32,000 nucleotides of DNA, from positions 28,040 to 60,039 of IMG/VR virus record IMGVR_UViG_3300017970_000001, one strand, 5' to 3'. The first letter of the stretch is position 1; each line of letters begins with the position of its first letter. The stretch is from a virus. Made by a program: the position numbers and the translations under genes. The notes under the pieces were generated by a model. It was not told where the DNA came from. It saw nothing but the letters and a program-made list of their open reading frames with translations, and searched no databases. Below are positions 4,980-25,639 of the stretch, in pieces.

Positions 4980-6404
4980 ATGGGACGTCCGAAAAAGAAC
5001 CGAGACATCATGGACCCGCAAGGCGTCCTCGACGGTACGGCCTCTGACGTCACGGACGTCGTCTACCCGGAAGCCGTTCCGCAGAATCCCGACGGGACCC
5101 CTCGAACCGAGGGAGAGATTTCGGAAGAACAGGTCCAGCAAATCGGTGCCGTCGATCTCGAGAGCGCGGCGCACAATACGCGTACCGATCGAATCAAGAT
5201 GGGGAAACTCTCGGGGAAGAGAAACGTCCCGTGGAACACGACGGATCCCCTCGAACAACTCGATTCGATTCGTTCGACATTCGCAGGGGAGTGGCCTGCG
5301 ATGCGCATTCACGTGGCTCGCGTCATTCCTGAGCCGGTGATGCAATTCCCTCCTGTGCCGGCGGCTTCTATTCGAAATACGGGAATGCTCTACGAGCTCG
5401 TGGAGCGGTACCATGGCGCGTCTCCCCCTGCGACCTATCAGGTGAAATTTATTGGTGCGTCCGGAGCCTGGAGAGGAAGTGGACATATCGGGATGCCGGA
5501 CAAGACGGCACCGTATCCGGCTCCTCAAACGTATGCTCCGCCCCAACCGGCGCCCGGACCGTTAGGACAACAGAGTCCCGTCGTCGTCAATATGCCGCCG
5601 CAGCAAAGGACATCGGAGTACAACGGTCAGACGGAGCTCATTCAAGCGATCATCTCTCAGCAGCAAGTGCAGACCCAGATGATGATGGGTGTCCTTAAGG
5701 ATATCGTCGAGTCGCTCAAGAAGCCTCAGATGCCTCCGGGGTTCATTCCCTTGCCCGAAGGTTGGCCCGAAACGCCGAAGGGATACACGCGCGTTCCGGG
5801 CGGATGCGTGCCGGAGCCACCTCAGCCCGTTTCTCATGCCGCGGCCGCGCCGCAGACCGTGTACGTTCCGCAGAGCGCTCCTGTAGCGGCGCCTGCATCG
5901 GATCCCGCCGCGCAAATGGCCTCGATGGCAAAGTCCTTCGGAGGCCTCTGGCGAACGATGCAGGACCTCCGGACGATGATCGAAGGGGCGGAGGATCTTC
6001 TTCCCGAGCCCGCCGGGCCAGCGGCCCCCGCCACCCCTCAGATCACGCCGATTCCCATCGGCGGCGGCATCTCGATGATCCCGGGGCCGAACGGAACCAC
6101 GAACTGGCCCGCTACCCTCCTAGGGGCACTTCCGAAGATCGTCGACGGTGGGCAAAAGGTCCTCGACACATACGGAAAGGTCATGGCGAAGCAGGCGGAG
6201 ATCACGCAGCGAACGGTGCAGGATCGAATCCGTCTCGCTCATGCTGTGGCTCAGGTTCCGGGGTTGCAACCGCAAGCGCCTCCGCCTCAGCCGGCTACCG
6301 CTCCTCCGCCGCCGCAGCCGGTACCTCAACCGGCTCCGCCGCCGCAACCCGTGGCGCGTCCAGCTCGCAAGATGCCCGAAAACCCCGGAACCTTGTGGGG
6401 GTAG
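4980..6404 (+). CDS. Pro/Gln-rich hypothetical (scaffold-like or structural) protein
   Basis: 474-aa ORF starting 3 nt after the previous stop. Long Pro-rich linkers, a Gln-rich helix (IISQQQVQTQMMMGVLKDIVESLKK) and a C-terminal PPPQP tract. No family recognised. Confidence 0.75.
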   Translation: MGRPKKNRDIMDPQGVLDGTASDVTDVVYPEAVPQNPDGTPRTEGEISEEQVQQIGAVDLESAAHNTRTDRIKMGKLSGKRNVPWNTTDPLEQLDSIRSTFAGEWPAMRIHVARVIPEPVMQFPPVPAASIRNTGMLYELVERYHGASPPATYQVKFIGASGAWRGSGHIGMPDKTAPYPAPQTYAPPQPAPGPLGQQSPVVVNMPPQQRTSEYNGQTELIQAIISQQQVQTQMMMGVLKDIVESLKKPQMPPGFIPLPEGWPETPKGYTRVPGGCVPEPPQPVSHAAAAPQTVYVPQSAPVAAPASDPAAQMASMAKSFGGLWRTMQDLRTMIEGAEDLLPEPAGPAAPATPQITPIPIGGGISMIPGPNGTTNWPATLLGALPKIVDGGQKVLDTYGKVMAKQAEITQRTVQDRIRLAHAVAQVPGLQPQAPPPQPATAPPPPQPVPQPAPPPQPVARPARKMPENPGTLWG

Positions 6405-6437
6405 CGTACGTATATCCTCGGGTGGTAGGGTACCGGG

Positions 6438-23937: not shown

Positions 23938-23956
23938 GAATCCAGAGGGTTACCCC

Positions 23957-25639
23957 ATGCGAGATTTCGAAAATATCACTCGGCTGATGGCAGAAGAGGC
24001 TCTTGCTAGAGCGGTTCTGGCGAGCGAGGGGCAAATAGGCGAAAGCCTTACGCAACCCACGTGGTTCGTGGATCCCGCGAACGTCACTGGGAACGCGAGC
24101 GATTCGAACAGCGGGCTCACCGCTGCCGTTCCGCTCTTGACGTTCCGGGAGATCGTTCTGCGCTGGGGGAGTAGCTCTCCCGTCCTCGCGCAGAACACCA
24201 CGATCACCTTTCTCTCCGATCAGAACCCCTTCGGCTACGGCGTATCGCTGAGCTCGCTCACGAATGGAAGCGCGAACTTCACGCTGTCGGCTCCCGCGCC
24301 CTACACGCTGCCGGCGGGGACACAGGTCTACTTCTCCTCGGGTGGCGGCGCGGGCGTCAACCAGCCTGGCACGCCCTACGTCTTGGCGAACGCGATCCCC
24401 AAGGGAAGTACCGCGGGTCTTCTTACGACTCCCTATACGGGGACTCCGGCCACGCCCAACTACATGGCGGCCCCCGCGTACCTCGACCCGATCAACATCA
24501 CGCCCGTTCTCTTGGAGTCGAGTCTCTTCATCGTCGGCACGCTCAATCAGGTGGCGACCGACACGCTCGGAACGTACACCGCGCGCAACCCGATGACAGG
24601 CGCGCTGGACACGATCACCGGAACGGCCATCGCGAGCTTCGTTCCCTACGATCAGCTCATGATCCAAGATACGACGGCGGGGGCTACGTTCTGGATTTTG
24701 GCTGAAGCGGGGACCTCTGCAACCATCTCGCCTCCCATGGCGACGGGAACTCCATTTCCTCCGGTAGCGCCCGCGCTCACGGCGATCTCGCCCGGAGACG
24801 CGATCAAGATCCTTCAGCCCACCCGCGTTTTTATCATCGAAGCCGCCCTCAATCAGGCGACGGAATTTCCCCCTCCGGGAATCAACAACGGTCTTTTCCT
24901 GCAAAACCTCTGGGCTGTCTCGTATCTCGATCCTTCGCTCGCGGGGGACTCGAATTTCAACGCGGTCAGCACCAATTCTCAGCAAGCCAGAATCGATGCT
25001 GAGATCAACCAGGGCAGCTACAATACCGATAGCGCCTACAACTGTAACCTCGTCGGCGGTCTCAAGACGTTCTCCTTCCAGGTGTACGGCGGATCGGTGG
25101 GGGGTCCCTTCGAGAATCCAATTTCGGTTGTCGGCCCGGCGGGCGCAAAGCCGATGCTCCTCGATGGGTTCACGGTGTGCACGACCGCTCCAGCGGTCGC
25201 ATACGGCGGTGCACTCGTCATCGGTGCTTGCCAGAACACCCCTGGCAATACGCTCTCGATCGGTGGGAACGTGTGGATCTCCGCCAATGCGCGAAACCCC
25301 CGCGTGTCGTACGCTACGGCATCTTACTCGGGAGCGACCCTCACCATTTCGATCTCGAGCGGTGGAGCTCTACGTATCGTGAACCAAGGAGCGGTTACGG
25401 CTGCTACAGCTCTTCCAAGCACAGGGACCGCAATTCACATCGACGGCGCAACGACCGGCGCAGGAGCGACGCAGTTCTCGACGAACACGGCCGGCGTTCC
25501 CGTGCAGTACACCGGAGCGTTCACCCCCGCGGCTCTCCAAGCGCTTCTCGGTGCCAACAGTCCCGCGACGGCGGCGATTCAGAACCTCGACACGCAGTCC
25601 CGATTTATTCTGAACGCGAACAACAACGACGTTCCCTGA
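23957..25639 (+). CDS. spike-like protein, possible right-handed beta-helix (pectin-lyase-like) fold
   Basis: 560 aa, T/G/A/N-rich. N-terminal TWFVDPANVTGNASDSNSGLTAAVPLLTFREIV resembles the start of beta-helix tailspike or depolymerase proteins (by eye). Last gene before the operon terminator. Confidence 0.75.
   Translation: MRDFENITRLMAEEALARAVLASEGQIGESLTQPTWFVDPANVTGNASDSNSGLTAAVPLLTFREIVLRWGSSSPVLAQNTTITFLSDQNPFGYGVSLSSLTNGSANFTLSAPAPYTLPAGTQVYFSSGGGAGVNQPGTPYVLANAIPKGSTAGLLTTPYTGTPATPNYMAAPAYLDPINITPVLLESSLFIVGTLNQVATDTLGTYTARNPMTGALDTITGTAIASFVPYDQLMIQDTTAGATFWILAEAGTSATISPPMATGTPFPPVAPALTAISPGDAIKILQPTRVFIIEAALNQATEFPPPGINNGLFLQNLWAVSYLDPSLAGDSNFNAVSTNSQQARIDAEINQGSYNTDSAYNCNLVGGLKTFSFQVYGGSVGGPFENPISVVGPAGAKPMLLDGFTVCTTAPAVAYGGALVIGACQNTPGNTLSIGGNVWISANARNPRVSYATASYSGATLTISISSGGALRIVNQGAVTAATALPSTGTAIHIDGATTGAGATQFSTNTAGVPVQYTGAFTPAALQALLGANSPATAAIQNLDTQSRFILNANNNDVP

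Follow-up and report, generated by a model that had tools for sequence, protein, structure and literature searches.

The window analyzed here is a stretch of 32,000 nucleotides (nt), positions 28,040 to 60,039 of the IMG/VR virus record IMGVR_UViG_3300017970_000001. Its plus strand carries a late gene block at 4980-25639, in which an earlier note, made by eye from the letters, had recognized no tailed-phage genes and had seen a candidate for a new lineage of tail-less viruses with an internal lipid membrane. The block encodes an 854-amino-acid (aa) precursor of a transglutaminase-fold enzyme that is split by an intein (9450-12014), a protamine-like core protein (12776-14443; depositor's start, 12812) and, directly downstream of the latter, three capsid candidates, all on the plus strand. 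These are a candidate major capsid protein of 421 aa (14496-15761), whose gene is more conserved than any other in the lineage, a second capsid or vertex candidate of 207 aa (15817-16440), and a third candidate of 381 aa (16500-17645), in which a beta-sandwich core of ~270 aa is followed by a Gly/Pro-rich tail.

Results

The protein of the 421-aa capsid candidate is also carried by the ENA metagenome record ERZ27251333:k141_1977611, a contig of 60,237 bp, whose positions 28261-60236 equal the window, apart from two additional copies of a 12-bp repeat at 23034-23096. The copies (GSPL, 5.2 of them) are arranged in tandem within the gene of a small membrane protein, and the surplus of two copies relative to the otherwise identical ENA contig indicates strain-level length variation. 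The whole contig was reassembled from four overlapping pieces, and all whole-genome scans reported below were done on the closed genome of ~59.9 kb. The final 92 nt of the contig reappear at its positions 222-313, downstream of a diverged copy of the 508-aa gene's 3' end. Since the contig end re-enters its start and, moreover, an independent Logan contig (L002) bridges the junction, the genome, one unit of which measures ~59.9 kb, is either circular or has terminal redundancy. It is complete, and all of its sequence was recovered. A comparison of the contig start (L053 1-313) with window positions 31650-32000 indicated that assembly had continued past the point of closure and into the sequence of another strain variant. 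The window would be the late (virion and lysis) half of this complete circular double-stranded DNA (dsDNA) genome, as part of an explanation that we consider, as a whole, moderately probable.

Searches against Pfam, PHROGs and NCBIfam assigned none of the 10 largest plus-strand products of 4980-25639 to a family, except for a weak Hint/intein signal in the product of 9450-12014, and for the 29 smaller products the only matches were to DUF192 (4e-25) and, weakly, to an endolysin PHROG. In 4980-25639, these scans detected no family of terminases, portals, HK97 capsids, proteases, tape measures, tubes, sheaths or baseplates. In the closed genome, too, family scans revealed no credible terminase, HK97 capsid, portal or tail family, and the ~40 kb and ~26 kb around the capsid candidate of two distant relatives contained no terminase, portal or capsid Pfam family. 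The absence of recognizable tailed-phage genes, as claimed in the earlier note, is thus borne out, and the matches to an HK97 capsid, portal, terminase or tail protein, in the window or just upstream, that it had named as speaking against its proposal were seen neither in the closed genome nor in these regions of the two relatives. Its observation that a Walker A motif is lacking was also correct: none is present in any coding frame of the window. When all six frames of the whole genome were inspected, Walker A motifs in real open reading frames (ORFs) were restricted to a Sak4-like protein and an SNF2 helicase, and no conserved Walker A ORF was found within 10 kb of the capsid candidate in ~40 related loci. 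The genome encodes no conjugation or partition ATPases. The earlier note had advised looking upstream for an FtsK/HerA-type packaging ATPase or a terminase, but neither is present in the closed genome. The element is therefore more unusual than had been proposed. We also asked whether the Sak4-like ATPase (413 aa) could package the DNA and rejected this, in view of its match to Sak4 (PHROG_124, 6e-41), its position between a PDDEXK nuclease and the helicase, and a match to a terminase PHROG that reflects only a generic P-loop (E 0.006).

Could the element be a strongly diverged member of the Caudoviricetes, with a terminase, portal, HK97 capsid and tail proteins that lie beyond the reach of profile hidden Markov models? 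Its replication, recombination and lysis genes are indeed typical of tailed phages, a 266-aa transglycosylase encoded upstream of the window matches the lysozyme part of a "baseplate hub" PHROG (8e-10), and several large late proteins were left out of the structure models described below. However, large terminases require a P-loop, and the two Walker A ORFs of the genome are confidently assigned to Sak4 and the SNF2 helicase. The "baseplate hub" match covers the enzyme domain only, and the same protein also matches a transglycosylase PHROG. Furthermore, there is no portal-sized soluble protein and no signal for a tape measure, tube or sheath (Pfam, PHROGs, NCBIfam), and the most conserved structural proteins are modeled as beta-sandwiches, without a spine helix and without an HK97-fold protein among the 150 listed Foldseek neighbors of the two modeled proteins. 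Membership in the Caudoviricetes fails on every defining feature tested, and we regard a diverged tailed phage as very unlikely.

Structure models were made of the 421-aa protein and of the core of the 381-aa protein. The AlphaFold2 model of the 421-aa protein (predicted local distance difference test score [pLDDT] of 86.3; predicted template modeling score [pTM] of 0.85) is beta-rich, with ~20 strands, a longest helix of at most 14 residues and a disordered N terminus of 18 residues. Foldseek gave no match below E 1e-3 in PDB or BFVD. The best 50 PDB matches were all virus capsids, namely, 49 of papillomavirus (HPV) L1 and 1 of FLiP, and the BFVD matches listed were mostly capsid proteins of CRESS-DNA viruses, hepeviruses and tectiviruses. 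The capsids of FLiP and Wip1 matched with E values of at least 0.05 and very low TM-scores. Residues 1 to 281 of the 381-aa protein (pLDDT of 81.6; pTM of 0.81) were predicted to be all beta, with ~8 main strands. Among the best 50 PDB matches of this core, all with E values above 1e-2, were 38 jelly-roll capsids (of parvo-, papilloma-, picorna-, noda- and sobemoviruses, a birnavirus and, weakly, VP16 of P23-77 [E 0.08 to 0.13]) and 7 concanavalin A (ConA)-type lectins. The profile of the 381-aa family gave a weak match to picornavirus VP1 (E 0.02), which, together with low-complexity matches, was all that profile searches of five families against PDB sequences produced. The 207-aa protein matched no family and no PDB sequence. 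Like the 381-aa protein, it accompanies the capsid candidate in 37 to 38 loci. The models support a jelly-roll-like beta-sandwich, rather than an HK97 fold, for the 421-aa protein and the 381-aa core. Neither model had a significant Foldseek neighbor, be it a capsid protein of PRD1, PM2 or sphaerolipoviruses or any other protein.

These matches also bear on the question of whether the element is a divergent member of a recognized jelly-roll realm, either Varidnaviria or the Sphaerolipoviridae/Matsushitaviridae type, in which case there would be no new lineage of high rank. The weak matches do include the FLiP and Wip1 capsids and P23-77 VP16, and the 421-aa model has, in its secondary-structure string, a helix after a strand at 168-180 and again at 313-323, which is reminiscent of the F-alpha-G element of double jelly-rolls. 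Adjacent capsid genes together with many small membrane proteins resemble the layouts of PRD1, PM2 and P23-77 as well. On the other hand, no capsid match is significant, 62 diverse members of the 421-aa family matched neither a Pfam capsid family nor a solved sequence in PDB, and in hhalign comparisons the three capsid-candidate families appeared unrelated to one another and the 421-aa protein gave no sign that one half duplicates the other. The genomes are, in addition, 3 to 8 times larger than that of any described prokaryotic member, and the FtsK/HerA ATPase is absent. The last point does not by itself exclude membership in Varidnaviria, because some recognized groups also lack the enzyme: FLiP, SPV1 and an Odin-like group are jelly-roll viruses without a packaging ATPase, and some of these groups have a double jelly-roll (PMC8812541). 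Taken together, we consider affiliation with a known realm unlikely, although it deserves to be kept in mind.

The seven lectins among the best 50 matches of the 381-aa core, the abundance of membrane proteins, the nucleoprotein-type basic protein and the missing packaging motor would also fit a different picture, in which there is no icosahedral capsid at all. The beta-sandwiches would then be lectin-like or surface proteins of a pleomorphic or enveloped nucleoprotein particle or of a nonviral envelope or surface apparatus of a plasmid-like element. But most of the weak structural matches are capsids and not lectins, and three tightly linked, highly conserved, compact proteins beside a core protein are the pattern of shell proteins. 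A holin-endolysin-lipoprotein cassette and phage-type replication genes, without conjugation or partition ATPases, also speak for a virus, and a particle or apparatus of this kind is quite unlikely.

The core protein is bipartite. Its N-terminal ~250 aa are protamine-like, with 38 to 52% Lys plus Arg per 50-aa block at residues 51 to 250, and are followed by a nonbasic, Gly/Ala-rich, hydrophobic C-terminal half, in which the value falls to 0 to 14%. The protamine-like protein that the earlier note had placed directly upstream of the capsid candidates is thus real and adjoins the conserved 421/207/381-aa trio. The same layout was found in all 18 full-length homologues (442 to 1,205 aa), whose basic N terminus spans 150 to 400 aa with 30 to 55% Lys plus Arg, and the gene always lies directly upstream of the capsid candidate.

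Several late proteins share a motif near the N terminus, [LIVMA]-G-[LFVIM]-G (hydrophobic-Gly-hydrophobic-Gly, or hGhG). It is present within the first 36 residues of 9 of 26 late proteins, whereas shuffled sequences had 1.0 on average and none of 20,000 shuffles reached nine; of 19 other proteins extracted from the window, none has it. The leader-bearing products include those that start at 7724, 7996, 9450, 12016, 14496, 17642, 18011 and 18360, with sequences such as MRVFDQHLVGFG, VQVFDLRLMGFG and GRLIGLG. In the capsid family, both Gly residues of the leader are at least 90% conserved, and they are located where the disordered N terminus meets the fold. The leader is a candidate signal for processing (cleavage) or targeting. 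If it is cleaved, the transglutaminase-fold enzyme would be the likeliest enzyme to do so, with a RadC/JAB protein encoded upstream as the alternative.

The 854-aa precursor consists of a Cys-His-Asp domain of transglutaminase fold that is interrupted by the intein, a Gly/Pro-rich linker and a C-terminal beta-rich domain. After removal of the intein in silico, the extein matched PF01841 (Transglut_core) over model positions 16 to 108 of 108 with E values of 0.004 to 0.019, which is short of the curated cutoff; 17 of 18 family members match the same model (best, 7.7e-7). Cys131, His163 and Asp179 (numbering of the spliced protein) are invariant in the family alignment, a GDFVG(M/V)(S/G) motif is conserved C-terminal to the transglutaminase-fold domain, and the family is kept in 33 loci. 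We take the product to be a PF01841-type transglutaminase-fold Cys enzyme with a predicted active domain. The intein that the earlier note had seen in a virion-type enzyme could be located precisely: it comprises 324 aa (residues 131 to 454; 9840-10811), starts with Cys1 at C131 (...VGD/CFPKGT), ends at N454/C455 (...VSN/C) and has a LAGLIDADG-like middle part. The matches to Hint, Intein_splicing, Hom_end_hint and LAGLIDADG_3 were weak, and all were under the curated cutoffs; at least 13 orthologues are colinear without an intein. It is inserted immediately before the catalytic Cys, and the enzyme is therefore predicted to be inactive until splicing has occurred. Most relatives lack the intein, but four distant ones (L026, L027, L028 and L045) align through the intein region with ~43% identity. 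The intein appears to move among these viruses and to take the same active-site position.

The C-terminal domain of the 854-aa protein has a 129-aa paralogue encoded directly downstream (12016-12405, plus strand), with 48% identity over 119 aa (BLASTP, E 2.5e-29) and the leader MRVFDQHLVGFG. The last 18 residues of the 854-aa protein, KCYLLNSLVPSGVVGTAK (11961-12014), resemble residues 397 to 414 of the capsid candidate, KQYIMNQLVPSGAVGTAQ (15684-15737). This shared segment of enzyme and capsid candidate may be a docking peptide.

More than 420 homologues of the 421-aa protein were found, none of which has a name or a Pfam domain; when 1.84 billion representatives were searched with its profile, 256 metagenomic clusters at 50% identity were obtained. 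The protein is encoded on 36 IMG/VR contigs of 4 to 128 kb, most of 54 to 128 kb, with G+C contents of 41 to 71%, and neither the 50,697 GenBank phage records nor the PLSDB plasmids contained a match. Comparison of ~40 related metagenomic loci revealed a syntenic core, which consists of RadC/JAB, a Pro-rich protein (500 to 700 aa), the transglutaminase-fold protein, the bipartite basic protein (440 to 1,200 aa) and then proteins of ~420, ~200 and ~280 to 400 aa. Several single-pass membrane proteins are encoded per locus in the relatives, too. Full-text searches of the literature turned up no account of such viruses, and the lineage is probably widespread and undescribed. In one relative, IMGVR_UViG_3300045391_004661 (L015), the capsid candidate is 49% identical to that of the window and the G+C content is only 41%, compared to 59 to 71% in the others; it is therefore probable that hosts differ widely across the lineage. 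In a distant relative, ERZ12298644 scaffold_2062_c1 (L056, 11225-19465), the late block runs at least 20 kb beyond the capsid trio and encodes PG_binding/LysM proteins, a glycosyltransferase and a 664-aa protein with weak collagen repeats, but no tailed-phage families.

The remainder of the late block is made up of membrane proteins, spike-like proteins and small soluble proteins. The earlier note had described a unidirectional operon that starts at 4980 and ends at a strong terminator. The terminator is indeed present (25701-25729, plus strand; a 13-bp stem with 8 GC pairs, followed by a T-run), but the start cannot be upheld, since the codirectional block extends upstream through RadC/JAB into the replication module. 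RadC/JAB, a RadC-like protein of 323 aa with a JAB/MPN+ metalloprotease fold (3049-4020, plus strand; Pfam RadC, 1.2e-31; PHROG_10276, 1e-28), heads the conserved module. Its metal-binding motif, HNHPSGx5PSxxD, is intact, and 20 of 37 loci encode a homologue upstream of the capsid candidate, at a distance of no more than 10 kb. Nor is the block strictly unidirectional. At 20211-20723, the depositor annotated a minus-strand gene of 170 aa, and this probable gene has a G+C content at third codon positions of 0.69, compared to 0.61 for the overlapping plus-strand ORF at 20196-20735. With the minus-strand ORF favored, the late block is split into two plus-strand units, and one "membrane protein" counted earlier, that at 20196-20735, becomes doubtful. 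Of the at least 14 single-pass membrane proteins claimed before, a hydropathy scan found 13 to 14, mostly with a C-terminal segment.

The first gene of the block (4980-6404, plus strand) encodes P474, a protein without a family match in which a conserved N-terminal domain of ~170 aa precedes a long Pro/Gln-rich region. Homologues of 500 to 700 aa occupy the same position in 19 loci, and their profile matched only low-complexity PDB sequences. P474 could be a scaffold or linker. It is followed by four proteins of 429, 83, 352 and 137 aa (6438-9469, plus strand), which match no family and have a single hydrophobic segment at or near the C terminus (Kyte-Doolittle); two of the four carry the hGhG leader. 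Downstream of the capsid candidates are three small tail-anchored proteins (121, 115 and 123 aa; 17642-18731, plus strand), each with the leader, and a Gly/Thr/Ser-rich, fibre- or spike-like protein of 484 aa (18728-20182, plus strand; no family match). The latter begins with ~2.5 repeats of ~52 aa, GITQL(T/S)xDxTAGPGxGxQ...VVGILS...LNWTG..WAFT, and was found in just 2 loci; such poor conservation would be expected of a protein that recognizes the host. Beyond the minus-strand gene are small soluble proteins (20777-22124, plus strand), including the DUF192 protein (21534-22124; Pfam, 4e-25), and six small membrane proteins of the single-pass type, which include paralogues and one protein with the 12-bp tandem repeat (GSPL x5), at 22250-23937 (plus strand). 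The last gene of the block (23957-25639, plus strand) encodes a spike- or fibre-like protein of 560 aa without a family match and with only one related locus.

The tRNA cluster and the endolysin cassette listed in the earlier note do exist, but both are on the minus strand and outside the late operon. ARAGORN called four tRNA genes (Ile-TAT, Cys, Ala and Arg-TCT) at 25740-26471, where Rfam gave a fifth, tRNA-like match (37.5 bits; 26078-26142, minus strand) without an ARAGORN call. The lysis cassette (26884-28553) encodes a T4-lysozyme-like endolysin (27948-28553) with a weak match to PHROG_7 (3.4e-5) and the E-x8-D-x5-T spacing read from the translation, a spanin-like lipoprotein with an LPMAGC lipobox (27574-27951), a holin-like ORF with two transmembrane segments (27228-27422; transmembrane scan) and a 115-aa protein. 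The lysis genes point to a bacterial host. The integrase, which had also been recognized before, is a tyrosine integrase (28710-29780, plus strand; Pfam, 5.2e-11; PHROG_1, 1.3e-22) and suggests lysogeny and thus a temperate virus.

Record positions 1 to 28 kb contain 60 genes. Besides the Sak4-like AAA_24 protein, these encode a PrimPol-VapE protein of 797 aa, an SNF2/DEAD helicase of 519 aa and the PDDEXK nuclease; the remaining products are all of 295 aa or less. The matches to phage-type replication and recombination proteins are strong, with PHROG matches to helicase, primase, Sak4, nucleotide kinase, exonuclease and HNH. When PrimPol-VapE was used as the query against IMG/VR, no relatives were found; the replication module is therefore not conserved together with the capsid module. 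Extra cell-wall-active genes lie upstream, outside the lysis cassette, at L053 11075-11875, 13677-14018 and 14897-15427; they comprise the 266-aa transglycosylase, a weak SLT match and a weak match to an Rz-like spanin. We also considered a satellite or a conjugative element and rejected both, because of the element's size, because it brings lysis and replication genes of its own and because it encodes no conjugation ATPases.

Discussion

The genome described here is probably that of an uncultivated virus, likely temperate, with a diderm bacterium as its host. The lineage would be distinct from the tailed phages and would fit into no described family. We hold this with moderate confidence. Our best reading is a tail-less, jelly-roll-type and probably membrane-containing virus lineage, for which we infer the fold class, the membrane and the mode of packaging, and there is a substantial chance that the lineage is categorically new. 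Of the tail-less membrane virus proposed in the earlier note, the nontailed part is supported by the missing hallmarks and by models that are not of the HK97 type; the PRD1/PM2-like architecture is an analogy, with no significant structural link.

How might such a virus be built? The 421-, 207- and 381-aa proteins, two of which are modeled as beta-sandwiches, would form a tail-less, probably icosahedral shell. Many single-pass membrane proteins are encoded in the late block, which argues for a virion membrane, and the small tail-anchored proteins would populate this virion-associated, probably internal, lipid membrane. The Gly/Thr-rich 484-aa protein and the 560-aa protein would serve as receptor-binding spikes. 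The Arg/Lys-rich N terminus of the core protein would condense the genome, and its hydrophobic C-terminal half could tie the nucleoprotein to the membrane or shell. In that case, the particle would form around DNA that is already condensed, with no motor to fill it, as in SPV1 and FLiP, which are jelly-roll viruses that lack the ATPase. Splicing of the intein would restore the catalytic Cys, and the transglutaminase-fold enzyme could then act on virion proteins, most likely as a maturation protease that removes short N-terminal leaders ending in hydrophobic-Gly-hydrophobic-Gly. Release would be by the holin, endolysin and lipoprotein of the minus-strand cassette.

Several points weigh against this scheme. 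The jelly-roll assignment comes from enrichment among weak matches and from secondary structure and not from superposition; all Foldseek matches have E values above 1e-3 and very low TM-scores. Structure models covered only two of the late proteins, the 421-aa protein and the 381-aa core. We infer the membrane, the shell and the cleavage sites from the sequence, and with the crude gene calls used, the leader motif was not enriched in distant relatives, beyond the closer clade. Among 185,579 species genomes, the capsid candidate was present only on five short contigs of metagenome-assembled genomes, of inconsistent taxonomy. We know of no precedent for encapsidation of 55 to 125 kb without an ATPase; the ATPase-less jelly-roll viruses known to us all have ~20 kb or less. 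An unrecognized motor or host-encoded packaging is possible.

A much stronger claim can be made only tentatively, and we think it possible but less likely than not to hold in full. It would be that of a realm-level new lineage of bacterial dsDNA viruses of 55 to 125 kb, widespread in soil-type metagenomes, with capsid proteins that are nonhomologous to known families and a membrane-containing, tail-less particle built around a protamine-condensed genome without a packaging ATPase and matured by an intein-gated transglutaminase-fold protease that cuts hydrophobic-Gly-hydrophobic-Gly leaders. To our knowledge, the well-studied bacterial dsDNA viruses above ~20 kb are all tailed phages with an HK97 capsid, portal and terminase. 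If the reading is true, a diverse and widespread lineage of 55 to 125 kb without tailed-phage hallmarks would be a new branch of the bacterial virosphere, and it would pose the mechanistic question of how 60 to 125 kb of DNA are encapsidated without a recognizable motor. An adenovirus-like logic of core and protease would, moreover, have arisen independently in bacteria. The protamine-like core protein, the three shell candidates, the protease-fold enzyme with its candidate cleavage motif and the active-site intein offer experimental handles. Classifiers that are based on known hallmark genes will mishandle the group, for which the conserved trio could serve as a marker set.

With the Caudoviricetes, the virus shares Sak4, the SNF2 helicase, PrimPol-VapE, PDDEXK, integrase, tRNAs and the endolysin, holin and lipoprotein lysis genes, but the defining morphogenetic genes of that class are all absent from the closed genome. 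The resemblance to adenoviruses (protein VII and adenain) is a functional analogy only: an Arg-rich core protein is encoded together with jelly-roll shell genes, and a Cys enzyme of protease fold is located in the morphogenetic block. Adenain cleaves at (M/I/L)XGX-G sites, which the short Gly-containing N-terminal motifs seen here recall. However, the present enzyme has a transglutaminase fold with the order Cys-His-Asp and is not of the Ulp1/adenain clan, and cleavage is only proposed; IVa2-type ATPase and protein-primed polymerase are lacking, and the host is bacterial.

A late block that mixes shell, many single-pass membrane and spike proteins is also typical of PRD1/Bam35, PM2, Autolykiviridae and FLiP, and the capsids of the double jelly-roll phages FLiP and Wip1 are among the weak structural matches. 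In contrast to those phages, the genome described here is 4 to 8 times larger, encodes no FtsK/HerA ATPase and no capsid protein of significant similarity, and would be replicated by PrimPol-VapE and a helicase rather than by a protein-primed polymerase. P23-77 and viruses of the Sphaerolipoviridae type have in common with it adjacent, mutually unrelated capsid-candidate genes, a module rich in membrane proteins and the weak VP16 match, but the matches are nonsignificant, the packaging ATPase is absent here and the genome is much larger.

SPV1 of the Portogloboviridae has a jelly-roll-type shell, a lipid membrane and a genome condensed as nucleoprotein. It is also without a packaging ATPase (PMC8812541). 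The genes described here suggest a similar combination, that is, a tail-less jelly-roll-type shell, a lipid membrane, a nucleoprotein genome and no packaging ATPase. SPV1 differs in its archaeal host and its genome of ~20 kb, and shows neither sequence similarity nor significant structural similarity to the proteins found here, with no SPV1 protein among the listed structural matches; the lineage described here has 55 to 125 kb, bacterial lysis genes, a transglutaminase-fold enzyme and a protamine-like fusion protein. By analogy, SPV1 would be the nearest architectural counterpart of this virus, and phages of the PRD1, PM2 and P23-77 types would be its nearest counterparts in bacteria.

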